From positions 1 through 62,045 of IMG/VR virus record IMGVR_UViG_3300021432_000009: a stretch of 62,045 nt of DNA. One strand, written 5' to 3'. Below are positions 2,666 through 53,391 of this stretch, in pieces. Made by a program: the position numbers and the translations under genes. Source of the stretch: a virus. Lineage: Duplodnaviria; Caudoviricetes. Position 1 is the first letter of the stretch. Every line of letters begins with the position of its first letter. Under the pieces are notes generated by a model. It searched no databases. It was not told the DNA's origin and worked only from the letters and a program-made list of their open reading frames with translations.

Positions 2666-2857
2666 ATGTGGGGTATGTCAGTTATGCACTGGGTCGTCGT
2701 CGCTGGTGTCGTCGCAGTGCTATTCGGCCGAAACAGGGTCAGCAGTGTTATGAAGGACCTGGGTGGCGGCATTCGCGAGTTCAAGAAGGGCATGTCCGAG
2801 GCGCTCGATGCCCCACGCATCGAGGACAAGCGAGAGGAGCGCGAAAGCGATGTTTGA
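2666..2857 (+). CDS. tatA: Twin-arginine translocase TatA/TatE family subunit
   Basis: MWGMSVMHWVVVAGVVAVLFG-RNRVSSVMKDLGGGIREFKKGM: short TM helix, FG hinge, amphipathic helix with FKKG; GGGGAG RBS. Confidence 0.9.
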   Translation: MWGMSVMHWVVVAGVVAVLFGRNRVSSVMKDLGGGIREFKKGMSEALDAPRIEDKREERESDV

Positions 2858-3458
2858 CACAACTCGCCGCAAGTTCCTAGTCGGCTCCCTCGCGTCGCTC
2901 TTCGCCGCACCGGCCATCGTGCGCGCTTCGTCGCTCAACCTCGCCGGCCTGCGCGGCGTGCGGTTTGACACGAGCGGCATAACCTACGACCAGAGCGACT
3001 CGCTCGCCTACGAGTACTGGGCCATCGGCCCCATGGGCCTCGCGAAGTACACGGCAAAACAGATAATGGACGCGCCGAAGGGCGTCTACCTGCCCTGGCT
3101 GCCTTCGGAACGCATGATCCACAGTTATGAGGATAAGCTGGTAGGGGGGCCTAATAGCTTCTTTCGCCCAGTGCGCGAGAACAAGTCCGGCCTAATGTTC
3201 GCACAGGATCAGAAGACAGCTGAACTCAAACTGCTAAATATCGCCGACTCCCTCGACCGCGACCCTGTAGTCGCAAAGCTTCGAAGCGAGCAAGACGACT
3301 TGCTTCGCAAGCTTCGCGATATGCCGCGCAACGAGGCGGAGAAGACGTTCGATCCCAACAACCACGAGGATCGAATGCGCGTCGTACGAGCGTCGCGAAG
3401 AATGCGAGAGCTAGCGTGGCGCAAGGAAGATGCGCAGAATGGCGAGCCTAGCGCATGA
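2850..3458 (+). CDS. Protein with twin-arginine signal peptide
   Basis: GAGGAG RBS, ATG 2850 overlapping the tatA stop; MFDTTRRKFLVGSLASLFAAPAIVRA-SSL. Confidence 0.8.
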   Translation: MFDTTRRKFLVGSLASLFAAPAIVRASSLNLAGLRGVRFDTSGITYDQSDSLAYEYWAIGPMGLAKYTAKQIMDAPKGVYLPWLPSERMIHSYEDKLVGGPNSFFRPVRENKSGLMFAQDQKTAELKLLNIADSLDRDPVVAKLRSEQDDLLRKLRDMPRNEAEKTFDPNNHEDRMRVVRASRRMRELAWRKEDAQNGEPSA

Positions 3459-9239: not shown

Positions 9240-9306
9240 CTTTAAGGATCATTGGGACGACATAGCAGGCTACGCGAAGCTGGTATCCGACCGATGCACG
9301 TCGTAG
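9004..9306 (+). CDS. DUF6378-like protein
   Basis: RGTTHGDF...MILHKISR..G...DHWDDIAGYA; start uncertain. Confidence 0.75.
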   Translation: MQSDSGLTKPMPSASSSTSELLAQRGTTHGDFTVNARISQRLKAVIQEEPNWPKLAAYQQEAIHMILHKISRAVAGNADFKDHWDDIAGYAKLVSDRCTS

Positions 9307-10391
9307 CGCCTCCATTCGCCCATTCGTCCGGCCCACGTACTGCGAAGCTCGCCTTCGTCGCAGAGTGTTGGGGCGAGCAAGAAGACATGGCTGGGCGCCC
9401 GCTTGTCGGCAACGCGGGCCAGGAGTTCACGCGGTTGCTGTGCGAAGCGGGGATAGACCGCAGAGAGTGCTTTCTAACTAACACCATCGCCGCAAGGCCG
9501 CCAGATAACAAGTTCGAAGCACACTTCTGTTGCAAGAAGGGCGAGCTTCCGCCCAACTACGCCCTCCCGCCACTGTCGCAGGGCAACTATCTGAAGCCGG
9601 AGTACTGCGGGGAGCTAGATCGCCTATGCGAAGAACTATGCACGGTTCGGCCAAACCTCGTCGTAGCCCTCGGCGCAAAGGCCCTATGGGCGCTAAGCGG
9701 CAGCAGTGCCACAGGAGCTATGCGGGGAACAGTAGCTACTTCACGATTCGTATTGCACCAGGGCAATGGCTCGCACAGTCTAGCTACACAGAAGATACTA
9801 GCGACGTATCATCCTAGCTATCTATTCAAAGTATGGTCACATAGGCCAATCGTCCTAGCCGACTTGATGAAAGCGAAACGCGAAGCCGCCTTCCCCGAGG
9901 TCCGCCGCCCCGAACGCACCGTGCTAGTCCGCCCGACGATCGGCGAGATCGAAGAGTTCTACGAGTTTAACCTACGAGATGCCGCCTGCATCGCCGTGGA
10001 TATTGAGACGAAGGCGGGGCAGATCAGCGATATTGGCTTCGCTCCCTCGCGCCGTAAGGCAATGGTAGTGACCTTTCTCGATCCGAAGAAGGCTGACGCG
10101 AGCTATTGGGAGTCGCCAGTACTTGAAGTCGCCGCGTGGAAGTGGGTGCAGAGGATACTCGCCTTGCCTTGCAAGAAGCTATTCCAGAACGGCGTCTTCG
10201 ATATCTCGTACTTGATGAAACAGGGACTGAGAGTAGTGAACTGCGCAGACGACACGATGCTACTTCACCACAGCTACTATCCTGAGCTGCAGAAAAGCCT
10301 TGCGTTCCTCGGGTCCATCTATACGAGCGAGCCGGCGTGGAAGCTTATGGTTAGGCACAAGAAAGAAGAGTTGTTGAAGAAAGATGAGTAG
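9294..10391 (+). CDS. Uracil-DNA glycosylase family 4-like domain plus 3'-5' exonuclease (N-terminal half of split DNA polymerase)
   Basis: AECWG.QE...PLVG.AG, TN, RPP.N, LG..A, TYHPS (UDG); DIET, QNGVFD, DDTM (Exo I/II). Confidence 0.85.
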   Translation: MHVVAPPFAHSSGPRTAKLAFVAECWGEQEDMAGRPLVGNAGQEFTRLLCEAGIDRRECFLTNTIAARPPDNKFEAHFCCKKGELPPNYALPPLSQGNYLKPEYCGELDRLCEELCTVRPNLVVALGAKALWALSGSSATGAMRGTVATSRFVLHQGNGSHSLATQKILATYHPSYLFKVWSHRPIVLADLMKAKREAAFPEVRRPERTVLVRPTIGEIEEFYEFNLRDAACIAVDIETKAGQISDIGFAPSRRKAMVVTFLDPKKADASYWESPVLEVAAWKWVQRILALPCKKLFQNGVFDISYLMKQGLRVVNCADDTMLLHHSYYPELQKSLAFLGSIYTSEPAWKLMVRHKKEELLKKDE

Positions 10392-10607: not shown

Positions 10608-10993
10608 GCACTGAAGGCTGCCCCGCCGAATACGTATACCTCGCGTCGCCGTACTCGCACCACGACGCCGCGGTGCGTGCGCTTCGTTTCCTCGAAGCTG
10701 AGCGCTGTTCGCACTGGCTTCTTCTCCGTAGGAACTGGAATTACTCTCCGATTGTCTACTGCCACTTGATGGCCCAGAAGTTCGGCCTTCCGACTGACTT
10801 CGCCTATTGGCAGGACTTAAATCGCGCCATGCTAGTCTACAGTCGCGCGATGTACATACTGACGATTGATGGCTGGCGCAACAGCACGGGGATCGCCGGA
10901 GAGCGCGAGTTCGCGGAGGGCGAGGGGATACTAGTAAGGTATATCGAACCGTATCTCGACGCATATCAGATACTGGCGAAGCCGCCATGCTAG
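10604..10993 (+). CDS. DUF1937 / nucleoside 2-deoxyribosyltransferase-like protein
   Basis: YLASPYS, SPI..H, GW..S.G...E...A. Confidence 0.75.
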   Translation: MSTEGCPAEYVYLASPYSHHDAAVRALRFLEAERCSHWLLLRRNWNYSPIVYCHLMAQKFGLPTDFAYWQDLNRAMLVYSRAMYILTIDGWRNSTGIAGEREFAEGEGILVRYIEPYLDAYQILAKPPC

Positions 10994-12501
10994 TTCGCAC
11001 GCAAGACCTCAAGCAAGGCGAGGTGACAGAAGATAATTTGCAAATATATAACGGACTTGATTGCTGTATCACAATGGAGGTCTTCGAGGAGCTATCGACG
11101 CTCAGTAACGCCCCACCGCCTGTCTACGCCTTCTCTCGTGCCTTGCAAGCCCCGATACTCGAAATGTCCCTGCGCGGGTTTCGAATAGACGAGTATGAGA
11201 GACAAAGTAGTCTCGCCTCGCTGCGCGAGAAGCGCACAAAACTTAACTCCGCGTTACAGTTGCTCGCATACGCGGTATGGGATAAGCCACTTAACCCCAA
11301 CGTCGGCGCGCACAAGCAGCAACAGGAGTTCTTCTACCGCCACATGCGGGTACCAGAAATTTGGTCCTCTCAAAAGGGCGAACGCAAGCTTCGCATGAAC
11401 CGAGAAACGCTAGAGAAGATTGAGGTATATCTGTATGCCAGACCAATCGTTGCGTGTATCTTGGCAATTCGTGATCTCAACAAATCAATTGAATTCTTCG
11501 AAACTGAACTGGATTCTGATGGACGGTTCCGAACGAGTTACAATATCGGGGGAACTGAATCATGGCGGCTTTCATCCAGCAAATCCGCCACGGGAACTGG
11601 AGGCAATGCTCAAAATCTTAAACGAGATGATGATATTGCCAAAGGAGAGCTTAGTGTTAGGAAACCCTTCGTCGCCGACCAAGGAATGAAGCTATGCGTC
11701 TTAGATCTCGAACAGGCTGAGTCGAGGGAGGTTGGGCTGATCTTCGGAACACTTTTCAACGACTGGAGATTCCTCGACGCTTGTGAGCAAGGCGATTTAC
11801 ACACCACTACCGCGAGGCTAATATGGCCAGAGCTTGTCCACGACCGCAAATCTGCCGAGGCTCACTTCTATCGTCACTTTACATATCGCGACATGTCCAA
11901 GCGTGGCGGCCATCTCACAAGCTACATGGGCACTGCGTGGACTGCGGCGCGCAGTTTGAAGGTTCCATTGAAGCTAATGGAGATATTTCAATCAGCTTTT
12001 GCGACAGGACCAAAAGCTGCGTTTCCGAGTTTCCCAAGGTGGTGGCGATGGGTAGCACAGGAGTTGCAGACCAAGCATCAGATCACAAATTCGTTTGGCG
12101 TTACCCGGACGTTTTTTGGTCGTCCTAACGACGACACAACGCTTCGCGAAGCAATTGCGCACTCGCCTCAGAGCAGCACGGCAATGCGTACGAACCTCGC
12201 GCTGTGGCGCATTTGGCGATATCTCCCACACGTCCAATTGCTCGCACAGACACATGACAGCGTGACGTTTCAGTTTCGCGACCGCGATGACAATTACACA
12301 AAGGAAGTGCTGCGAGACGCTAGGGCGCTCATGAGCACGCCCTTGCACCTGCCAAATGGCCGCATCTTCGACGTTCCAAGCGACTGCAAAATCGGCTGGA
12401 ACTGGGGAGCCTACGATGCGAAGTACAACCCGAATGGATTGCGCAAGTGGAAGGGCAGCGACGAGCGGAAGAGGCTAGATGGAGTGGATCGCATACTATG
12501 A
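10987..12501 (+). CDS. DNA polymerase family A (polymerase half)
   Basis: YNGLD (Exo III), TESWRLSS, DLEQAESR (motif A), RDMSKRGGHLTSY (motif B), THDS (motif C). Confidence 0.92.
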   Translation: MLVRTQDLKQGEVTEDNLQIYNGLDCCITMEVFEELSTLSNAPPPVYAFSRALQAPILEMSLRGFRIDEYERQSSLASLREKRTKLNSALQLLAYAVWDKPLNPNVGAHKQQQEFFYRHMRVPEIWSSQKGERKLRMNRETLEKIEVYLYARPIVACILAIRDLNKSIEFFETELDSDGRFRTSYNIGGTESWRLSSSKSATGTGGNAQNLKRDDDIAKGELSVRKPFVADQGMKLCVLDLEQAESREVGLIFGTLFNDWRFLDACEQGDLHTTTARLIWPELVHDRKSAEAHFYRHFTYRDMSKRGGHLTSYMGTAWTAARSLKVPLKLMEIFQSAFATGPKAAFPSFPRWWRWVAQELQTKHQITNSFGVTRTFFGRPNDDTTLREAIAHSPQSSTAMRTNLALWRIWRYLPHVQLLAQTHDSVTFQFRDRDDNYTKEVLRDARALMSTPLHLPNGRIFDVPSDCKIGWNWGAYDAKYNPNGLRKWKGSDERKRLDGVDRIL

Positions 12502-29970: not shown

Positions 29971-30435
29971 CTAGTGCGCTCGCCATACCAAGTCCACTAC
30001 TACTGCGACTGCTCCTATAGCGCCCACTAAGTAGCCCCATCCATCTCCTATGCCCTTGCTGTGCCCTTCGCCTTTGTCCATTCGAGACTTCAAGTCGTCA
30101 ATCTTGTCTATCGTCGCCTGGTTCGCAGTTTGAAAGATCGTCTGTAGTTGTTTAATAGATTCAGCAGTAGATATTTCGCTCTTCGAAATCGCAAGTGCGC
30201 TCGACTTATTCTGCTCCGTCACTGCGTCCTGCGCGGCCTTAAAAGCGGCGGTGAGCGCGGTGTCTCGCATCGAGAACTGCGTAGCAACACCTGTTAATTT
30301 CTCCTCTATGAGATCTTGGAGGGCCTTGATTTGGCCCTCCAAGTACATCTTAATATTCGCGATCTCCCGAAGCGACTGTTCGATCGTTCGCTCAGTCGGA
30401 TCGGGATCAGGGCGAACTATTCGCTGCTCAACCAT
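29971..30435 (-). CDS. Coiled-coil protein with C-terminal TM
   Basis: PDPT..T, AA..A..AV..Q, AI.KSE, IDDLK. Confidence 0.65.
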   Translation of the reverse strand: MVEQRIVRPDPDPTERTIEQSLREIANIKMYLEGQIKALQDLIEEKLTGVATQFSMRDTALTAAFKAAQDAVTEQNKSSALAISKSEISTAESIKQLQTIFQTANQATIDKIDDLKSRMDKGEGHSKGIGDGWGYLVGAIGAVAVVVDLVWRAH

Positions 30436-34448: not shown

Positions 34449-35681
34449 CTAGAGGAAGTCAGGCACAACGCAGGCCCATTCGGGCCGAACGTATAGGATT
34501 CCCCAAAGCACGTCAAGTCGAGTGATGAATTGGTCGCTGCGAATGTCGTATGCGCTAATCATTCGCATCGAGATGCCATCATACGACTCCCTCGCCGCTT
34601 CGTGCACGCCACGCGGCAGCTCCAGGTCCGCCGTTGCCATCGTGATGGCCTCGGGCACGAACGCGAAGTTCTTCCGATACACGGAACTCGCCAGCGTTGC
34701 AGGGATGACATTCGCCGCATTCGCCGGCGAGTTGTCCACCGTCTGGTACTGCACCGGAGTCGGCCCAGCAGCCGCAGGGATCAGCGCAGGGTAGATGTTC
34801 ATCGTCGTGCCGCCATTCGCAACGGCAGTCGTCAAGACGAACTGCATCGGAGTCTGCGTGGAGACCTTCGTGATACGGTTCACGGAGTTGACGCCGCTGA
34901 TCGTCACGATATCGCCGAGAGCGTAGGTGCCCGCCAGCGCATTAATGGTGATCTGCAACCCCGTTTGGCCAGCGCCATTCACAGTGGCAGACGTGGCCTG
35001 CGCGCTCGTATACGCACCCGTCGTATGCTTGATAACCGTTTGGTCCGAGTACCAGTCGAACCCGAGCGTATCCTCGGCGATCTGACCCTTCTTGTACTGG
35101 TCGCCGATCTTGTTCTGCGGGTTCAGTAGGCCGGCGAGGCTCGCGACGCTTCGCGCCATCGTAATGGGGTCAAGGATCAGTTTCCGGCGACCCCTTGGCG
35201 CAGAGTTAAGGTCGAGCAGCGCGCCGGCGGTGAGCCAAGTCTGCGCAATGGGCGTGAGCACGTTGCCTGCGCCATCGAAGTTGCCGGCAAGTCGGGCTAC
35301 GCCGCCCTCGACGCCGGCCATGATATTCGCGGCTACGTCGCCGCACAGGTTATTGACCATCGGGGCGAGGATACGGCGGGAGAAGTCGTCGAGCAACATG
35401 GTACGGTCGACACTGCTGTACGACACGTCCACGCCATATTGGTTGGTGAGCGTCAGCGTGGTGCTCTGCTCGCTCGTGTCCTGAATGCTCGCCGCCGGTC
35501 CGTGCCGAGTCGTGAAGTCGTTCGGCAAGCGCACCCTTACCGTCGTGCCGATCTTCGCGCCCGTCTTCGCGAACTGATCGTCGTATTGCTGGTCGATGTG
35601 CTGAATGAACTCGTTGGAGTTCTTCCAAAGCCGCACGGCCTCGCGGGTAATCATGTTGATTGTCAGGATGGTATTCGGCAT
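34449..35681 (-). CDS. Major capsid protein (P22 coat family)
   Basis: N..LTI.MITREA, YDD.F...GAKIG...R.RLP, TRLDVL.G...RPEW. Confidence 0.95.
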   Translation of the reverse strand: MPNTILTINMITREAVRLWKNSNEFIQHIDQQYDDQFAKTGAKIGTTVRVRLPNDFTTRHGPAASIQDTSEQSTTLTLTNQYGVDVSYSSVDRTMLLDDFSRRILAPMVNNLCGDVAANIMAGVEGGVARLAGNFDGAGNVLTPIAQTWLTAGALLDLNSAPRGRRKLILDPITMARSVASLAGLLNPQNKIGDQYKKGQIAEDTLGFDWYSDQTVIKHTTGAYTSAQATSATVNGAGQTGLQITINALAGTYALGDIVTISGVNSVNRITKVSTQTPMQFVLTTAVANGGTTMNIYPALIPAAAGPTPVQYQTVDNSPANAANVIPATLASSVYRKNFAFVPEAITMATADLELPRGVHEAARESYDGISMRMISAYDIRSDQFITRLDVLWGILYVRPEWACVVPDFL

Positions 35682-35833: not shown

Positions 35834-36733
35834 TTAGTGCCTCGTAGCGCGCTGGGCGCGCTCCTGTTCGTTCCGCTTCGCGATAAACTCTGTCATCGGC
35901 ATAGTCTCAAGATCTGGCTCTGCTCGAGTCGCGCCACCCACTCGGGGCGCGATCGGCTTCGGCGCGCGCGTTACCCTCGGCTCAGCCTCGCCCAGCGCAT
36001 TCTGCTGCGCACCCAGCTCGCTCGCAAGCTTCGTTAGCGCAACAGCCTGCGCGACAGCGGGCATCGAGAGTATTCGATCGGCCTCACTCGGGTTCTTGCC
36101 CAGGTGATAGATGAGCGCGCCGGCGGAGCCAGTCTCCAGCGCCGCGGCGAGAAACTCGCCCGGCACAACTGGGCCGGTTACAGTCTTCAGGCCTGCGATG
36201 GCCTCGTCGAAGTCGGGGTGTTCCTTGCGACCCGCGAAGACTACTTCGTCCATTCTCGTATTGAACTGCGCATTCGCAGCGAGCCGGCGGGCCTCGGCCT
36301 CCACCTCCGCTTGCGTGAATGTTCGTACAGCCGGCTTTGGTGGCTCAGGCTTCGCTTCGCCCTCTGCTGGCTTCGCTACGCCCAGCTTCTGTAACTCCGC
36401 AATGGTGTCCTCTGCGAGCTTCGCTCGCGCTTCCGCCGCTTCGCGCGCTCGCTTCTCTTCCCACTTCTCGCGAGTGAGCACGTTGATGCGCTCAGCGGCG
36501 CCATCCTTCTTCGGCTCGGGCTTTGGCTCGCCCGCGGGCGGCTCGCCATCCTTCGGCGCGAGCAGCGCCGCAACAGGCTTGAGTGGTTCCGCTGGCTGCT
36601 CTGGCTGCGGTGTTGGTGTCGGGCCGGGCTCGGGTGTCGGCGTAGCAACGCCGCCGGGGCCAAGAGAAGCCTCGTCGCCCTCAGCAGAGCACAGGAAGGT
36701 GTGGTCGAGAAAGTGGCGATGGCGGAAGAGCAT
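35834..36733 (-). CDS. Capsid scaffolding protein
   Basis: Pro/Glu-rich N-terminus, RI..LT, G...PDF, YHLGKNP.EA.RI, APKPI.P; upstream of coat. Confidence 0.8.
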   Translation of the reverse strand: MLFRHRHFLDHTFLCSAEGDEASLGPGGVATPTPEPGPTPTPQPEQPAEPLKPVAALLAPKDGEPPAGEPKPEPKKDGAAERINVLTREKWEEKRAREAAEARAKLAEDTIAELQKLGVAKPAEGEAKPEPPKPAVRTFTQAEVEAEARRLAANAQFNTRMDEVVFAGRKEHPDFDEAIAGLKTVTGPVVPGEFLAAALETGSAGALIYHLGKNPSEADRILSMPAVAQAVALTKLASELGAQQNALGEAEPRVTRAPKPIAPRVGGATRAEPDLETMPMTEFIAKRNEQERAQRATRH

Positions 36734-43903: not shown

Positions 43904-45142
43904 CTAGAAGTCCGCCGAGACTTCCCACACGCCCGTGCCGCCTGCGGCACCAGTCAGCTGCTCGACCTGCCCCGCAGTGTTCGTATTCGCCGCAGTGATA
44001 GCGCAGGCGTTGAGGCCACAGAGCGCCGCCGTCGGTGTAGCGATAGTCGTGAGCGTATTCGCGATATTCACCTTGAACGTGCCAGCCGTTGTGATGGTGA
44101 TCGTCGGCGTAGCCCGCATAGTCTGTGCAAGTGCAAGCGTGCAGCCGTTCGTGTTGGCTGTCAAGGCTTCGCAATAGCCATTCAGCGGATACGCAGCAGC
44201 AAGTTCAGCGAAGCGCTGGTAGTACGTCTGTGCAATTGCAAGTTCAAGCTGATACGGCTGGAACTCGAACGCACTCGCCGAGGCAGCGACTTCGAGCTGC
44301 GCGCCGGTGAAGGCGAAGCCGTCGGTGGTGCCCGCGCCCGTCGCAGTGGGGGTGAAGCACAGCTCAACGCCGAGCTCTGTCACCGTCGTCGCCAGCGTAA
44401 CTGTGATTTGATAGCGCGCAAAGGCAGTGGTTAGCTGCACGGGCTGTTGGTTGACTGCAAATGCTATCCCCGTCCACGCAGGCGTGATCGCCGGGCTCGC
44501 TGTGAGCGTGCCCAGCCCCTGGTCCGTACCCGTACCGGTGATGATACTCGCTGTCATCAAGTTGCCATTGTCGGCATTCAGACCCGCAAGCGCCGCAGCA
44601 GTGAAGCTCAGCGTCACGGTCTTCCCCGCAAGGTACGTGGAGCGTACCGTGGGAATTTCCTGAATCGCGCAGACGGGCTGCGTGAGCGCGCCACTTGTTC
44701 GGTAGACCTTCAAGACCGCAGGGAAGCCCTGCGGCGGAGTAGGTGTCGACGTAGCGAGCTGCGTCCTGCCTGCGCCGACTGCGACGTTCACATCGCATGA
44801 CCAGCGGTCAGCGCCGTACGCAGTCATAGTCGGCGCAGTGTTCGTCCCGCATGTCGCAATGCCAGTGCCGCGCTGCTGCACGGCCATTGCGCCGTTATCT
44901 AGGTAGTTCCTCGGCGTGCCGGAGAAGTTACCGAGCACACTCAGCGGAATAGTGATCGTCTGCGGCACTTCGCCATTCGGCAGCCCGGTGTCCGCCGCGA
45001 CAATCTCGTTGCCCGTCAGCGGGTTCGTCAGCGGACTCGCCGAGTTTGAAGGGTAGCCGGGGTAGATGCCAGCCGCGTGCGCGGCAATTGCCGCGCAAAT
45101 GAGCGCAACAGAGGCGCCCAACAGAGTTCGCTTCGTATTCAT
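43904..45142 (-). CDS. Signal-peptide-bearing fibre/carbohydrate-binding-like protein
   Basis: MNTKRTLLGASVALICAAIAAHA; RN...NG.M.V.QRG..DRW, QLE....S.FE...EL...Q.YY motifs of phage fibre domains. Confidence 0.7.
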   Translation of the reverse strand: MNTKRTLLGASVALICAAIAAHAAGIYPGYPSNSASPLTNPLTGNEIVAADTGLPNGEVPQTITIPLSVLGNFSGTPRNYLDNGAMAVQQRGTGIATCGTNTAPTMTAYGADRWSCDVNVAVGAGRTQLATSTPTPPQGFPAVLKVYRTSGALTQPVCAIQEIPTVRSTYLAGKTVTLSFTAAALAGLNADNGNLMTASIITGTGTDQGLGTLTASPAITPAWTGIAFAVNQQPVQLTTAFARYQITVTLATTVTELGVELCFTPTATGAGTTDGFAFTGAQLEVAASASAFEFQPYQLELAIAQTYYQRFAELAAAYPLNGYCEALTANTNGCTLALAQTMRATPTITITTAGTFKVNIANTLTTIATPTAALCGLNACAITAANTNTAGQVEQLTGAAGGTGVWEVSADF

Positions 45143-47184: not shown

Positions 47185-47830
47185 CCTTGGCCTCCCACTT
47201 GTCACACACGTCATCTGGCGAAATCGCCCCAGCCACCCAGGTACACGCCCGCAGCCGCGGCAGGAACATTGCGCAGTGCTCGCACGCGCGAGTCTTCCCA
47301 CTCGCCTCTCGGTAGTCCACTTCGTCCTTCTCGAACTTGCTCTTCGCGGCGACCTTCTCCAAGTGTGCGAGCAACTTCGCATCGCCCTCGTAGGGATATA
47401 GGTCGAGATCTGGCGGCACTCGACGGATATCCTCATGCTCAATTGGCATGAAGTCTGGCTCTAGGCCCTTCTCGTACTTCTCCCAGTCGTAGCCGTCGCC
47501 AAGCACTGCGAATTGCTCCGCAGCAGTAGCTAGATGATGGGCAGGCTCATAGCTCTGCTCTGCTTCATGCACTAGCGCCGCCTCGACGCTCTCGTGCACT
47601 TCGATATACTTCGCCAGCGGGACGCCTTCGCTCTTCTCCGGCAGATGGCGGTCGAGGTACACATACGCGCCGTCGCGGGAGATTCCACCCAAGTATGGCA
47701 CGTCGAATGTGTTGCAAAGCTTGCGCCACTTGCGCAGCCGCCGGCCGACGGCCGGATAGCGAATTAGTAGGGCACGTAAGCGCGCGAGCGAGCCCGGTGC
47801 GTCGTCGAATTTACTATCACCTGCGCTCAC
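47177..47830 (-). CDS. HE-motif protein with C-terminal HiPIP-like 4-Cys domain
   Basis: PYLGG.S.DG..Y.DR, HE.VE, AH..A; Y....C..C..F....C..V.G.ISP...C..W. Confidence 0.65.
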   Translation of the reverse strand: MSAGDSKFDDAPGSLARLRALLIRYPAVGRRLRKWRKLCNTFDVPYLGGISRDGAYVYLDRHLPEKSEGVPLAKYIEVHESVEAALVHEAEQSYEPAHHLATAAEQFAVLGDGYDWEKYEKGLEPDFMPIEHEDIRRVPPDLDLYPYEGDAKLLAHLEKVAAKSKFEKDEVDYREASGKTRACEHCAMFLPRLRACTWVAGAISPDDVCDKWEAKGE

Positions 47831-48189
47831 GCGATTATCCTGCCAGGCTCAAGTCCTGCGTATTCTGGCCACGATACTACTGCGTCTATACAAGCCTGCA
47901 CACCAGGGACTGGTCGAATACTGTCAATAGTTTCTCTCGAAATAAACTTGTGAACCTGTTTAGCTGTAAGTGTAATAATACCAGATCGAGAGTCGTATTG
48001 ATGCAATGGAAACTGAGCACGGTCTACTCGAATTAACATTTGGTCAGTATTGATTTGGTATACAGCCAGATACCGCGTGTAGTATGGGTCAAAGTTGCGA
48101 ACTGGCATTAAACTACTCGTACGCACAATGGCTGGCGCAGCCAGGCTGCTAGCAAGACCAACTAGAAGACTTCTGCGAGCAATAAGCAT
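47827..48189 (-). CDS. Twin-arginine signal protein with weak similarity to coat C-terminal strands
   Basis: MLIARRSLLVGLASSLAAPAIVRTSSLMPV; RYLAVYQINTDQMLIRVD. Confidence 0.7.
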   Translation of the reverse strand: MLIARRSLLVGLASSLAAPAIVRTSSLMPVRNFDPYYTRYLAVYQINTDQMLIRVDRAQFPLHQYDSRSGIITLTAKQVHKFISRETIDSIRPVPGVQACIDAVVSWPEYAGLEPGRIIA

Positions 48190-48410: not shown

Positions 48411-48644
48411 CTAGGCCGTCATATTCGGCAGTGCGATCTTCGGAGCATTTGCTCGCACGCTGTCGCGTTTCGCTCGCTCGGCGCACATGCGGTCGATCCA
48501 GGCGAGGATAGTCTCAGCATTCGTAAGTAGCAAGTCGACACCACCGTTACCGAGTGGAATACCGTGTGTACTGCATAGCTGCGGAAGTCTGCTGGCGCAC
48601 TCTAGTGCTAGCGAAACCGTGGCGCGGTCGGAGACGGCGGTCAT
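48411..48644 (-). CDS. Hypothetical protein
   Basis: Coupled ORF. Confidence 0.55.
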   Translation of the reverse strand: MTAVSDRATVSLALECASRLPQLCSTHGIPLGNGGVDLLLTNAETILAWIDRMCAERAKRDSVRANAPKIALPNMTA

Positions 48645-48880
48645 TCGGCAGCCTCGCGAGCAGTGTTCTTCTCGTGCTCATACACGATCTTCTCATTCTC
48701 AATTCGTTTTAAGTACTCAGCATCGCTTTCAGTGTTCAAGATCATCTTCTTAACTTCGCTGCGAAATACAGCAAGTCGGTTAAGCGCCTTAATTTCCTCG
48801 TCGTATCGAGCCTGAGTCAGCTCAATCATCGTGTCACTTTGCAGATCGTAGGCCATAATAACTTTGCGCTTCGTTGTCAC
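48641..48880 (-). CDS. Hypothetical protein
   Basis: Coupled ORF. Confidence 0.55.
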   Translation of the reverse strand: MTTKRKVIMAYDLQSDTMIELTQARYDEEIKALNRLAVFRSEVKKMILNTESDAEYLKRIENEKIVYEHEKNTAREAAE

Positions 48881-49518
48881 TTTGGCGGCTCCAGTTGTGG
48901 GGTGGCAGTTACGTCGATCAGCGGGGCTTCGTCAGCTTGCGGCGACACGAAGCTCACGTTTACCGTAACGCCGCCGCCAGAGGTGCCCTGCTGCCCTCGT
49001 GCCGCGCCCTTGCTAGGTGCCACCGACCTGTCGAAGGCCATGGCGGCGACCTCAAGCAGTTCGCGATTCTTGAAGTCCTCGGGGGAGTCTTCTAGCCGCT
49101 CCTGTAGCACCTCGACTGCCGTGGCGCCGACTACTGCGAGGCGTCCTGTGGCGTCGAGGAACTGCGCTTGCGCCTCAGCAGCATAGTGCGCGACTAGTTC
49201 GCGGAACGCTGGGTCTTGCGTTTGCAAGCGATATATCGTCGTAATCGCGTGGCCAGTTATGCTTGCGATCTCGGCTGGCTTCTTCCCACTTGCGACGAGG
49301 CGGGCGAGCAGGTGGTGGGAGTAACGGAGACGCTGGACGGACGACTTCGCCGCGCCCACGGGGACGTTGCGCAGAATGTCGATGTCCTCCGCCGTGAGGT
49401 CGCGGACGTAGGAGAAGACGAGCGGCTCGGCGCGCTCCCGGCGGCCCTCGGAGAGGGCTAGAAGGGCGATATCGTCGAGCAATTCGACTGAGGCGGTCAT
49501 GCTGCTGCACTCGGCCAC
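48877..49518 (-). CDS. HTH protein, candidate terminase small subunit
   Basis: H..LARL.A.G....EIA..TG.....I..L..DPAF; C-terminal VNVSF. Confidence 0.55.
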   Translation of the reverse strand: MAECSSMTASVELLDDIALLALSEGRRERAEPLVFSYVRDLTAEDIDILRNVPVGAAKSSVQRLRYSHHLLARLVASGKKPAEIASITGHAITTIYRLQTQDPAFRELVAHYAAEAQAQFLDATGRLAVVGATAVEVLQERLEDSPEDFKNRELLEVAAMAFDRSVAPSKGAARGQQGTSGGGVTVNVSFVSPQADEAPLIDVTATPQLEPPK

Positions 49519-49877
49519 TGTTGGCCTTCGTAGTAGGCCAAGTCGAATGCTGCGTCTTGTCGTGCCATGATAGACTTCGCAACAGACTCAGCAAACTTGT
49601 CCTGCATAGGCTTAATGATACGAGCAGAGTACTCATCGAGTACTAACTCAGGTGGCAGTTCTAATGCTGTCCACTCAGGACGAACTTGCATCGAGCCAAA
49701 CAGGACGTGTAAGCGAGTAATTGACTCGTCGGCTCCAACGTCGTACACAGCAATCTTGCGAAGTGAGATGCCATCGGAGATGGCCTTGACTGGCATAAGC
49801 GACGAGGCGCGAACGATAGCCGGGGCAGCGATGAAGAGCGCTCCTAGACCAGTTATAAAGCTGCGCCGGCTAGTCAT
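49497..49877 (-). CDS. Twin-arginine signal fused to permuted major-capsid fragments
   Basis: MTSRRSFITGLGALFIAAPAIVRA; matches coat residues 368-402 (21/35 identical) then 95-122 (12/28), aligned by hand. Confidence 0.85.
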   Translation of the reverse strand: MTSRRSFITGLGALFIAAPAIVRASSLMPVKAISDGISLRKIAVYDVGADESITRLHVLFGSMQVRPEWTALELPPELVLDEYSARIIKPMQDKFAESVAKSIMARQDAAFDLAYYEGQQWPSAAA

Positions 49878-50260
49878 GCGAAGCTCGCTGTCTGCCGAAT
49901 TGTGAAGTCGCCAGGAAGTCGGATTCGAATAGTACTGCCAATTTTTACACCGGCTTTATTAAACTCGTCGTCGTATTGCGAAATAAACTTGTGTGAGTTC
50001 ACAAATAGCTTAACTGCCTCGCGAGTGATCTCGTTAACTGACAGCAGGCTACCGGTAATTTGGTACGTTGCTGCTTCTTCAAACCATTCAGCCTCCGCGC
50101 CAAGCAGAGGATACATGAAAACTGGTTCTTCTTGGACTGTACTGAGCGCCTTAACTGGCATTAAGCTACTCGCACGCACGATAGCCGGGGCGGCGAACGC
50201 GAATGCGCCGAGGCCAGCGAGAAAGCCGCGGCGAGAGGGGATGAGTAGTTGGTCTGCCAT
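49874..50260 (-). CDS. Twin-arginine signal fused to major-capsid N-terminal fragment
   Basis: SRRGFLAGLGAFAFAAPAIVRA; matches coat residues 4-59 (32/52 identical), aligned by hand. Confidence 0.88.
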   Translation of the reverse strand: MADQLLIPSRRGFLAGLGAFAFAAPAIVRASSLMPVKALSTVQEEPVFMYPLLGAEAEWFEEAATYQITGSLLSVNEITREAVKLFVNSHKFISQYDDEFNKAGVKIGSTIRIRLPGDFTIRQTASFA

Positions 50261-50317
50261 GTGGCGTGTTCCGTGTAACCCGACCGCCCCCCTTGGGGGC
50301 GACTAGCAATGCGTACC

Positions 50318-52267: not shown

Positions 52268-52296
52268 ACTATAGCACGCAGCGGGACGGTTGTCAA
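52268..52296 (-). promoter_or_regulatory. Sigma70 promoter
   Basis: TTGACA-17-TATAGT, TG extended. Confidence 0.8.
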
Positions 52297-52311
52297 GGGT
52301 TATTCGTCTGC

Positions 52312-52667
52312 GTTGTCGCGACTTGTTGCGTTATGTCGGACGGCGTAGTCGGTCTCCTATGTTGTTTGAACCTACCGTGTGTCGCATGGGTGGGTCGGCT
52401 GGCCGTAGGCCACCAATGTAATTACACACGTGGGCCGTAGGGCGCATCCTGCCTCGCACTGCTTATGGGCCACGAGGTGGGACCCCTTGCCTCAGATTGT
52501 GGCTTTTCTGTGTCTTTCTGATGATATTTTTTTTATAGACAGACTCAGACACACGAGCACGCCACGTGGCCTACACGAACACGGGCCACGCGACAGAGGC
52601 ACGGTAGGTCGAAACAACAACGGTGTCCGACTACGCGGGCAGACGTAACGCAACAATCAGGCACAAC
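52312..52667. repeat. Long imperfect inverted repeat around a T-tract (candidate origin or packaging region)
   Basis: ~100-bp arms 52312-52413 and 52566-52667, plus an inner hairpin 52499-52565. Confidence 0.75.
52407..52436. repeat. Dispersed dyad repeat copy D
   Basis: AGGCCAC-CAA-TGTAATTACA-CAC-GTGGGCC. Confidence 0.8.
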
Positions 52668-52714
52668 CGTGCCCGACTATCGCATTCGCTTCCACAATCG
52701 CACGCTACGCGAAA

Positions 52715-52960
52715 CTATTTCACGCTAACGACCTTGCCGTCCTTCACAACCGCTTTCGCGTACCAGCTATGTGCTGCCGGACAGTGCGGGCCTTCGAGGT
52801 ATATTGTGCCGTCCTTCGGCTCATTGCCACCAAACGGGCCAGGCTGATGGTACGTCACCGCGCGACCTGCGCGCTCGCCATCTATTCCCTTCAATGTGTT
52901 GTAGGCTTCGACGGCAGCCTTGAGTTCCTTCTTTGTCTTAAAGTTGCGGTCTGTATACAT
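52715..52960 (-). CDS. Hypothetical protein
   Basis: GGGGAG RBS; NFKTKKELK...EGPH.P..H.WYA. Confidence 0.75.
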   Translation of the reverse strand: MYTDRNFKTKKELKAAVEAYNTLKGIDGERAGRAVTYHQPGPFGGNEPKDGTIYLEGPHCPAAHSWYAKAVVKDGKVVSVK

Positions 52961-52987
52961 CGCTATCTCCCCTTGTTTCGATGGCAC

Positions 52988-53016
52988 AACATAGCACAAC
53001 TAACTCGTTGTGTCAA
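52988..53016 (-). promoter_or_regulatory. Sigma70 promoter
   Basis: TTGACA-17-TATGTT, TG extended; CACAAC/GTTGTG dyad overlapping the spacer. Confidence 0.7.
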
Positions 53017-53019
53017 CCC

Positions 53020-53245
53020 CTATTCGTCGCCTTCGACTCCATCGGGTTGAAAGCCCGCGTACCGATCGCTCAGCCTCGCCCACGGATGGCATGCCGCAAC
53101 AGCGCACACAGACCCGAAGTGCACTACCTCGCCACTATCCACGTGCTCGAGCACAACCGTATGTGACAACTCTGTGTTGCCACAACAATCGCAACAGAGC
53201 ACCTCGTCGCTCGTGCCGAGCCGAATGAATAATGGTTGCATCATG
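53020..53245 (-). CDS. Zn-binding hypothetical protein
   Basis: AGGAG RBS; CDCCG...L..TV......FG..CA. Confidence 0.6.
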
Positions 53246-53362
53246 CGCTCCTGATCGTTGCCGTTGGCTCGTCGAGCCACTAAATTGCCACGCTGTCCCG
53301 CACGTCGTCGTGCGACATTGGTAGAGATATTCTTGCATCGTTATCTCCCATTTGTTATCGCG

Positions 53363-53391
53363 AGTATAGCGCACAAACGCGTGTTTGTCAA
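53363..53391 (-). promoter_or_regulatory. Sigma70 promoter (leftward of a divergent pair)
   Basis: TTGACA-17-TATACT. Confidence 0.8.

Follow-up and report, generated by a model that had tools for sequence, protein, structure and literature searches.

Two coupled genes built from a leader and pieces of the coat protein

We analyzed the complete IMG/VR virus record IMGVR_UViG_3300021432_000009 (Duplodnaviria; Caudoviricetes; 62,045 nt, CheckV completeness of 100%), hereafter called the window, focusing on the small minus-strand gene P0003 (49874..50260), in which a conserved N-terminal leader precedes a fragment of the major capsid (coat) protein. P0003 is one of a very large number of small, unannotated phage proteins that form a family and combine a fixed leader with a variable cargo. 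In its own lineage, the cargo is a mini-coat of three coat segments, often permuted (C-terminus, helix, N-arm), which is here split over P0003 and the coupled next gene, P0004.

According to the ORF list and its translation, P0003 starts with ATG and encodes 128 amino acids (aa) that begin with MADQLLIPSRRGFLAGLGAFAFAAPAIVRASSLMPVKA and end with RIRLPGDFTIRQTASFA, arranged as a leader (residues 1–38; 50147..50260, minus), a linker, and a coat N-terminal fragment (residues 71–123; 49892..50050, minus). In BLASTP, this fragment aligned to coat residues 4–60, from the N-arm through the first strand, with 32/57 identical and 44/57 positive positions and one 4-residue gap (E 1e-20). The first-pass annotation, made from the letters alone, had described the ends of the ORF and the match to the coat correctly, and its hand count of 32/52 identical residues was essentially right. 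The BLASTP alignment covered only 57 of the 410 residues of the coat protein. The coat gene (34449..35681, minus; PF11651 P22_CoatProtein, E 2.9e-31; phrog_283, E 2.1e-61) represents the source type of the fragments, and its product matched the coat in PDB entry 8skg_F, with residues 234–325 matching the I-domain in 6mnt_A. P0003 itself had no Pfam match even at E ≤ 10.

The stop codon of P0003 and the ATG of P0004 (126 aa; 49497..49877, minus) share 4 nt (ATGA at 49874–49877), in agreement with the coupling of the two frames recorded initially. P0004 carries the same leader (25/32 residues identical to that of P0003), followed by a piece matching coat residues 368–405 (21/38 identical, E 4e-12) and then by one matching the coat long helix, residues 95–122 (12/28 identical, E 4e-5; all by BLASTP). 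The Pfam P22_CoatProtein profile aligned to P0004 over profile positions 372–421 with 12.9 bits, below its cut-off of 24, and neither P0003 nor P0004 scored above the Pfam cut-off as a full-length coat fold with A-domain and P-domain. Among 620 small ORFs from all six frames of the window, strong coat matches were found in P0003 and P0004 alone. The end of P0004 is overlapped by a gene for a 213-aa protein (48877–49518, minus) that also adjoins the leader gene in both syntenic relatives described below (61% and 49% identical); it had no family match, and part of it resembles a helix-turn-helix by eye. On the other side, a G+C-rich palindrome (CGCCCCCAAGGGGGGCG, minus strand; 50283–50299) occupies part of the spacer that separates P0003 from the upstream gene, with no T-run after it.

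Between the leader and the N-terminal fragment, residues 47–59 of the P0003 linker (VFMYPLLGAEAEW; 50084..50122, minus) lined up in alignment A3 with YPMLGVKPEW of P0007, a protein of P0003-like architecture (54% identity over 100% of the length), and with YGSFHIRPEW of P0008, which is a clear coat C-terminus. This stretch is possibly a degenerate coat C-terminal piece, with no significant score of its own. We also considered whether P0003 residues 33–70 could be the C-terminus of a scaffolding gene, an idea that arose from a tblastn match crossing a gene boundary in Pseudomonas phage PAE2, and rejected it, given that hardly any residues ahead of the coat start were identical in a local alignment.

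The domain names used here follow the boundaries of P22 gp5 as given in PMC9965877 and were transferred by colinearity of the Pfam match. The N-arm and F-loop comprise gp5 residues 2–50, the P-domain long helix lies within residues 79–127, and the P-domain sheet spans residues 358–416. The C-terminal helix-turn-helix of the P22 scaffold binds N4, D14, E15, and E18 in the N-arm as well as R101 in the P-domain helix (PMC9965877). Mapped in this way, the three coat pieces would make up an N-arm plus P-domain mini-coat from which the A-domain, the I-domain, and the greater part of the E-loop are missing, and by analogy with P22 gp5 they probably represent the inner coat surface that contacts the scaffolding protein and neighboring subunits. 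Structure prediction with AlphaFold2 (AF2) gave low-confidence models without a compact fold for both proteins (pLDDT 56.3 for P0003 and 59.2 for P0004), with only the leader, the N-arm, and the long helices formed, including the long helix of P0004 (residues 80–118; pLDDT 83–89).

The leader family and its cargo

The leader of P0003 consists of SRRGFL, a hydrophobic stretch, AAPAIVRA, and SSLMPVKA. Members of the family share a rigid N-terminal pattern of ∼33 residues, [ST]-R-R-x-[FL]-[LI]-x-G followed by 12–13 residues and AAPAIVRA-x-S-[LI]-M-P-V-[KR]-A. Two further leader genes were identified in the window by tblastn. P0005 (120 aa; 47827..48189, minus) has a cargo that starts with a weakly coat C-terminus-like stretch (residues 31–56 versus coat 365–390, 8/26 identical, with a weak E of 0.003 in a single comparison). 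P0006 (202 aa when read from Met30; 2850..3458, plus) lies inside the replication module, and is 41% identical over 157 aa to an orthologue in the relative G002; the P0006 cargo of ∼170 aa matched no PHROG or Pfam family. A degenerate DNA pattern for APAIVRA occurred 4 times in the window versus 0.17 expected, and 0/100 shuffles reached four. Most differences among the four leaders fall on third codon positions (third-position identity 0.24–0.45, omega 0.19–0.53), so the conserved entity is the leader peptide and not a DNA element. A leaderless 79-aa ORF (48641..48880, minus) with a weak coat C-terminus-like start (7/14 identical, E 0.01) is also present. P0003, P0004, P0005, P0006, and seven neighboring ORFs had no Pfam, PHROG, or NCBIfam family. 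When same-strand ORFs up to 4 kb away were clustered, no constant companion of the leader genes emerged, each family being limited to at most 9 of 61 loci. An origin of the leader from coat residues 339–351 was rejected, since the BLAST match (6/13 identical, E 2.2) was at chance level.

Word searches with the full-length protein and with the leader only retrieved 29 and 27 small proteins, respectively. We built a 35-position profile from the four window leaders and searched 1.84 billion representatives with it, which yielded 7163 protein clusters at E ≤ 1e-3, 517 of them at E ≤ 1e-10, and none at E ≤ 1e-30; the best 150 of the 7163 matches were all 49–175 aa long and had the leader at or near the N-terminus. 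We located the leader at 63 IMG/VR loci, and 1–2 copies were present in each of five other phage records, of which three were rated complete and the remaining two 98% and 70% complete, compared with four copies in the window. The 185,579 species genomes searched contained 7 leader loci, four of which encode a cellular enzyme and one of which lies on an Azospirillum chromosome. The leader had no match in 50,697 GenBank phage records, even at E ≤ 10, in a search whose BLAST low-complexity filter may hide the alanine-rich leader, and none of 47 candidates for longer leader proteins (225–2000 aa) carried it at E ≤ 0.01, which is weak evidence. The first-pass annotation had proposed a search of related phages for the same architecture, with uniqueness to this genome counting against a function; the relatives and the 7163 profile clusters show that the architecture is not unique. 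What that annotation overlooked were the coat pieces in the next gene, the presence of four leader genes, the old lineage of the fragment, and the leader on thousands of small phage proteins. We found no paper describing a leader-plus-capsid-fragment architecture, in a search that covered subscription journals thinly, and no literature match for the motif APAIVRA. Within the limits of the family, literature, and GenBank searches, the leader family and its design are new.

The only cultured-organism instance found was in Azospirillum sp. A26, whose chromosome (L070, 2238382–2258462) encodes a 137-aa leader protein in a prophage-like region with phage-like large ORFs. In the metagenomic protein P0049 (122 aa), the leader occurs in tandem, with RRSFLWGLVAAPAIVHAGNLMPINPRLRHI present twice in one ORF and the second copy internal.

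The first-pass annotation had read the leader as a Tat (twin-arginine) signal peptide, and this assignment held in part: every feature that can be judged by eye is present, and a cellular enzyme carries a near-identical h-region and c-region, but hidden Markov model (HMM) scores stayed below cut-offs. The Tat consensus S/T-R-R-x-F-L near the N-terminus appears in P0003 as S-R-R-G-F-L at residues 9–14. By inspection, it is followed by an h-region of ∼15 residues (mean Kyte-Doolittle 2.0) and a c-region with a basic residue and P-A-I-V-R-A before S-S. Among the best-scoring 150 leaders, RR was present in 150/150, S/T before RR in 114/150, F/L at +2 in 146/150, and L/I at +3 in 141/150; the distance from RR to AAP was 12 or 13 in 147/150, PAxV and the M of SLM were each found in 150/150, and acidic residues occurred in 2/150. 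These conservation values are inflated because the 150 members were selected by the profile as its top scorers. The model TIGR01409 matched 39/150 of these proteins at E ≤ 1 (best E 0.0034), weak Tat-model matches were also obtained for 27/150, and P0003 matched only TIGR02811 among these models (13.3 bits). The signal of the cellular PF01261 enzyme was likewise missed by the same Tat models. Language-model neighbors, which are leads only, include Tat-signal families (0.85–0.86). We treat the leader as a probable Tat-type targeting peptide, which may mediate Tat export and may have an additional specific partner.

The PF01261 enzyme is encoded on four contigs of metagenome-assembled genomes (L072, L073, L074, and L076) as a 323–382-aa xylose-isomerase-like TIM-barrel protein (E 4.8e-30) with the N-terminal sequence RRxFLKSLSSSVIAAPAIVRAS. 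Its h-region and c-region are almost identical to those of the phage leader, and the SLMPVKA extension is absent.

To compare cargos, the leader was cut off and the remainder was searched against all ORFs of at least 150 aa from the fetched loci, a local target set of 985 large ORFs that included only about ten capsid genes. Nine of the 73 leader ORFs (8 if two identical contigs are counted once) matched a major capsid protein, one matched the portal protein of its own phage (residues 605–632), and one a tail-collar fibre, versus 2 capsid matches in a control set of 5156 small ORFs that lack the leader and come from these loci (Fisher p 6.5e-16 for capsid matches). The two control matches were a capsid gene cut by a contig end and a leaderless coat C-terminal fragment adjoining the leader gene of a relative. 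In the unbiased leader-only sample, the cargos of the best-scoring 150 proteins matched a capsid protein in 14 cases, a portal in 1, other leader ORFs in 2, and any other class in 0, and every capsid or portal target was named major head protein or portal by PHROGs. The capsid targets carried seven family labels (phrog_283, 334, 9953, 212, 371, and 3437, and one capsid_maj_Podo-like protein). HMM scans of the best 150 gave weak matches to MCP_gp7_epsi_15 (5), capsid_maj_Podo (3), and PHROG major head proteins (3), and likewise weak matches to baseplate (2), tail fibre (1), and large terminase (1). Regular-expression motif counts (37/150) were based on patterns written after reading the same sequences; they show recurring cargo types only and were not used to assign origin.

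Across families, the matched capsid regions were the N-terminus (within residues 2–71), a helix at ∼93–152, and the C-terminus. In the P22-like group, a C-terminal (R)P(E/D)W motif joined directly to the helix start LTLD.Y..R..PM was common to P0004, P0146, P0153, and the L008 and G002 genes, while the cargo of P0008 runs from the coat C-terminus to the N-arm. In phage G006, whose capsid belongs to a sequence-unrelated family, the cargo consists of a helix (residues 122–143 of its own capsid) followed by the N-terminus (own capsid residues 11–41). P0036 (133 aa) carries the leader on a whole coat I-domain, matching coat residues 234–325 with 34% identity over 92 aa (E 3e-9).

These proteins could be exported small proteins with a periplasmic or envelope role, for example in exclusion or signaling, for which capsid segments would have been reused as building material. 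A leader with all visible Tat features and a signal-peptidase-type V-R-A site would suit such a role, as would the many cargos without a detectable structural-protein source and the tail-collar domains of P0024 and L059, which could bind surface structures. However, the repeated bias to the same three capsid regions under seven family labels is hard to explain in this way, no long exported enzymes carry the leader (weak evidence), and we know of no periplasmic partner for the N-arm and P-domain. We consider a periplasmic role quite improbable.

Age, turnover, and possible function

The P0003 fragment and the corresponding coat DNA are 63% identical at the nucleotide level and 44% identical at third positions, a divergence as large as the first-pass annotation had judged it to be. 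Their comparison yielded a dN of 0.34, a saturated dS of 2.2, and an omega of ∼0.15, with 56% of the residues kept; for the C-terminal piece of P0004 versus the coat, omega was 0.16. Given that synonymous sites are saturated while 56% of the residues are kept, P0003 is a maintained gene under purifying selection and not fresh duplication debris, as had been supposed, and the value between fragment and coat is far from the dN/dS near 1 that would have spoken against a function. On the other hand, the proposal that the fragment is a diverged copy of the phage's own coat did not hold. The fragment is identical to its own coat at 32/58 positions, to the coats of two close relatives at 34/58, and to two distant coats at 30/58 and 31/58, while the compared coats are mutually identical at 33–59/62 positions. 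Given the saturation of dS and a similarity to its own coat no higher than to distant coats, the fragment represents an old, separately maintained lineage that keeps the conserved positions of the coat family, and not a recent copy.

Non-functional recombination debris behind a mobile leader cassette would account for pieces that are short, shuffled, and different between relatives, as well as for the lack of a fold in AF2. This explanation is disfavored, and we regard it as very improbable indeed: the frame is intact, dN/dS is low with dS saturated, conserved coat-family residues are kept in deeply diverged copies, identical junctions occur in distant members, and capsid pieces are strongly enriched among the leader ORFs.

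Two syntenic relatives have flanking genes 49–71% identical to those of the window and coats 85% and 95% identical to the window coat. At the site of the two genes P0003 and P0004, one of them (G001/L008) has a single 96-aa gene composed of the leader, a degenerate C-terminal motif, and the helix, and the other (G002) has a single 137-aa gene (L080:1456–1869) composed of the leader, the helix, and the N-arm (E 9e-5 and 1e-16). G001/L008 is also without a counterpart of the third leader gene. Judged from these sequences, such turnover of leader genes between relatives is the behavior of an accessory gene cassette.

The pieces present at this site vary between close relatives, which leads us to read the leader genes as putative accessory genes for conflict and not as core assembly factors. 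The cargo, in turn, suggests a capsid-interface mimic, since it is made of interface pieces only, has no autonomous fold, retains conserved contact residues under purifying selection, turns over between relatives, and has been recruited repeatedly, with the same regions taken from different capsid families. We therefore favor, with a probability of roughly 0.35, an accessory conflict function in which the mimic would bind scaffold or coat and the leader would relocate it. The mimic, which would not fold alone, may bind the natural partner of the N-arm/P-domain surface, that is, the scaffolding protein or coat subunits, and the twin-arginine-type leader would take the mimic and its bound partner to the Tat translocon, to the membrane, or out of the cytoplasm. 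The most likely role would be to hinder the capsid assembly of co-infecting related phages, or to control free coat or scaffold early in infection.

The same pieces could serve the phage's own assembly: a mini-coat targeted to the membrane would retain scaffold or coat there and in this way nucleate or chaperone the formation of procapsids, or set its timing. The fragments do keep residues conserved across the coat family, leader genes adjoin terminase, portal, and capsid genes in several phages, and the cargo family was the phage's own capsid or portal family in 6 of ∼11 phages where both were visible. However, gene content varies among phages with 85–95% identical coats (two genes, helix only, or helix plus N-arm), phages G008 (complete) and G007 (70% complete) have leader-gene cargo unlike their own capsid, and the leader is absent from the GenBank phage records (0/50,697), P22-like phages included. 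This turnover and the absence from cultured P22-like phages weaken a role in own assembly, which we consider unlikely.

The plus-strand genes of the window make up the replication module (helicase, exonuclease, annealing protein, ParB-methyltransferase, DNA polymerase in two ORFs, and primase), and on the minus strand, from ∼52 kb, small genes including three of the leader genes are followed by terminase, portal, a putative scaffold gene at 35834–36733, coat, and tail. Three sigma-70-like promoter matches (52268..53391, minus; 11/12, 10/12, and 11/12 in a consensus scan) lie 2–3 kb upstream of the leader genes. Both strands together contain 8 sigma-70-like sites versus 3.3 ± 1.7 in shuffles, and these sites are consensus matches only and not evidence of function. 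A search of the window with PF00589 for a tyrosine integrase gave no match; serine recombinases lay outside this search. By portal, the nearest cultured relatives are Pseudomonas phage PAE2 (45%) and Acetobacter phage phiAX1 (39%), and megablast of window positions 30000–52000 found no related GenBank phage record. The two DNA polymerase ORFs (9252–10391 and 10987–12501, plus) match consecutive parts of one PHROG profile (positions 479–807 and 805–1239) and are ∼600 bases apart, which could reflect a split gene or an inserted element. A 412-aa tail-fibre-like protein (43904–45142, minus; phrog_4492, E 1.2e-24) has a hydrophobic, signal-peptide-like N-terminus, MNTKRTLLGASVALICAAIAAHAAG.

PMC13581612 reports protein classes that trigger Avs/STAND sensors, and Avs7, Avs8, and Avs10 are described there as binding mainly the A-domain interface that forms hexons and pentons. 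A credible minority reading is a counter-defence decoy: the fragments would imitate virion parts recognized by sensors, be made early, and occupy the sensors without activating them, while the leader mislocalizes the complex. The cargo sources, mostly capsid, then portal and tail fibre or collar, with the weak single HMM matches to baseplate and large terminase, overlap the Avs/STAND triggers. The leader genes are accessory, turn over fast, and lie downstream of sigma-70-like promoters, and the lack of a tyrosine integrase in the window fits a lytic phage facing host immunity. The decoy is weakened by the binding site of the described Avs sensors, given that the fragments omit exactly the A-domain. 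Moreover, a fragment that binds a sensor could equally trigger it, and the need for an export-type leader has no explanation.

Several observations also weigh against the conflict function that we favor. At the leader, the curated TAT_signal cut-offs were not reached (P0004, 12.7 bits versus 16.7 for TIGR01409; a relative, 13.2 bits versus 22.7 for PF10518). Conservation continues eight residues (SSLMPVKA) past the putative cleavage site, far beyond what a generic Tat signal needs, which suggests an additional specific partner. Tat normally exports folded proteins, and a cargo predicted to be unfolded is at odds with these usual substrates. The leader is not always needed, given that the leaderless ORF of the relative L008 (10923–11216, +) that is syntenic to 48641..48880 matches coat 365–393 (14/29 identical, E 1e-7). 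At the cargo, 135 of the 150 members of the leader-only sample had no detectable source in the small local database, and some cargos, such as that of P0006, show no apparent relation to structural proteins. Since the fragment is equally similar to own and foreign coats, nothing accounts for a sparing of the phage's own assembly. Finally, early expression of the leader genes is a prediction from promoter consensus matches.

A bolder extension of the favored conflict function is a programmable device, present in many phage lineages, that mimics and relocates: the leader would be combined with virion interface pieces (capsid N-arm/P-domain, portal, tail fibre), and the bound target would be removed by hitchhiking on the Tat pathway. 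The targets could be the scaffold or coat of a rival phage, or a host sensor, and a swap of the fragment would change specificity. We regard this device as a long shot; if real, it would be a weapon of a new class, aimed at other phages or at the host, and would put the Tat pathway to a new use.

Implications and comparison with known systems

If the favored conflict function is correct, thousands of small "hypothetical" phage proteins would belong to one system with a fixed targeting leader and an exchangeable virion piece, so that a sizable share of viral dark matter would receive its first function. The system would also represent natural capsid-interface mimicry in phages and could be a new phage route that uses the host Tat pathway, and the cargos would offer peptides, already tested by evolution, for binding the assembly interfaces of many capsid families. 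Should the mechanism be wrong, it would still have to be explained why one leader has repeatedly been joined to the same three capsid regions, across seven family labels, and why the leader family is absent from GenBank phage isolates. The leader protein of Azospirillum sp. A26 is a possible experimental handle.

The leader resembles Tat signals (TIGR01409/PF10518) in its S/T-R-R-x-F-L motif, its mildly hydrophobic Gly/Ala stretch of 13–15 residues, the proline ∼6 residues before V-R-A, and its basic c-region. It differs from them in its sub-cut-off scores, its fixed length, its near-invariance across unrelated cargos, its conservation past the putative cleavage site, and its detection on small proteins only. 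Similarly, the cargo of P0003 and P0004 shares significant similarity with P22 coat gp5 (PF11651) over coat residues 4–60, 95–122, and 368–405, but each gene holds only ∼14% of the coat, the A-domain, the I-domain, and most of the E-loop are left out, and the order of the pieces is permuted in relatives.

In function, the nearest parallels to a capsid-interface mimic are the capsid-redirecting proteins of satellites. SaPI CpmA, P4 Sid, and PICI Ccm, either small accessory proteins or homologues of capsid proteins, change assembly by engaging the coat–scaffold interface of a helper phage; unlike the genes described here, SaPI CpmA/CpmB, P4 Sid, and PICI Ccm are satellite-encoded and without a signal-like leader. 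As described in PMC5644958, CpmB is a small accessory protein that engages the helper's coat–scaffold interface and changes assembly. P0003–P0006 showed no similarity to CpmB or Sid in as far as they had no Pfam, PHROG, or NCBIfam family, in scans that did not search for those families by name. In eukaryotic viruses, dominant-negative restriction of the Fv1 type involves a capsid fragment or copy that interferes with the incoming or assembling capsids of relatives; this is an analogy in concept only, from another domain of life, with no homology and no leader.

In design, the leader genes recall the T4 capsid-targeting sequence on internal proteins and the polymorphic toxin cassettes, in which a conserved N-terminal targeting peptide is found on paralogues with unrelated C-terminal parts. 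As in those families, one leader is combined with variable cargo, and several such genes occur per genome. In contrast to them, the leader described here looks like an export signal and unlike a tag cleaved by a prohead protease, and the cargo consists of fragments derived from the virion's own protein types.

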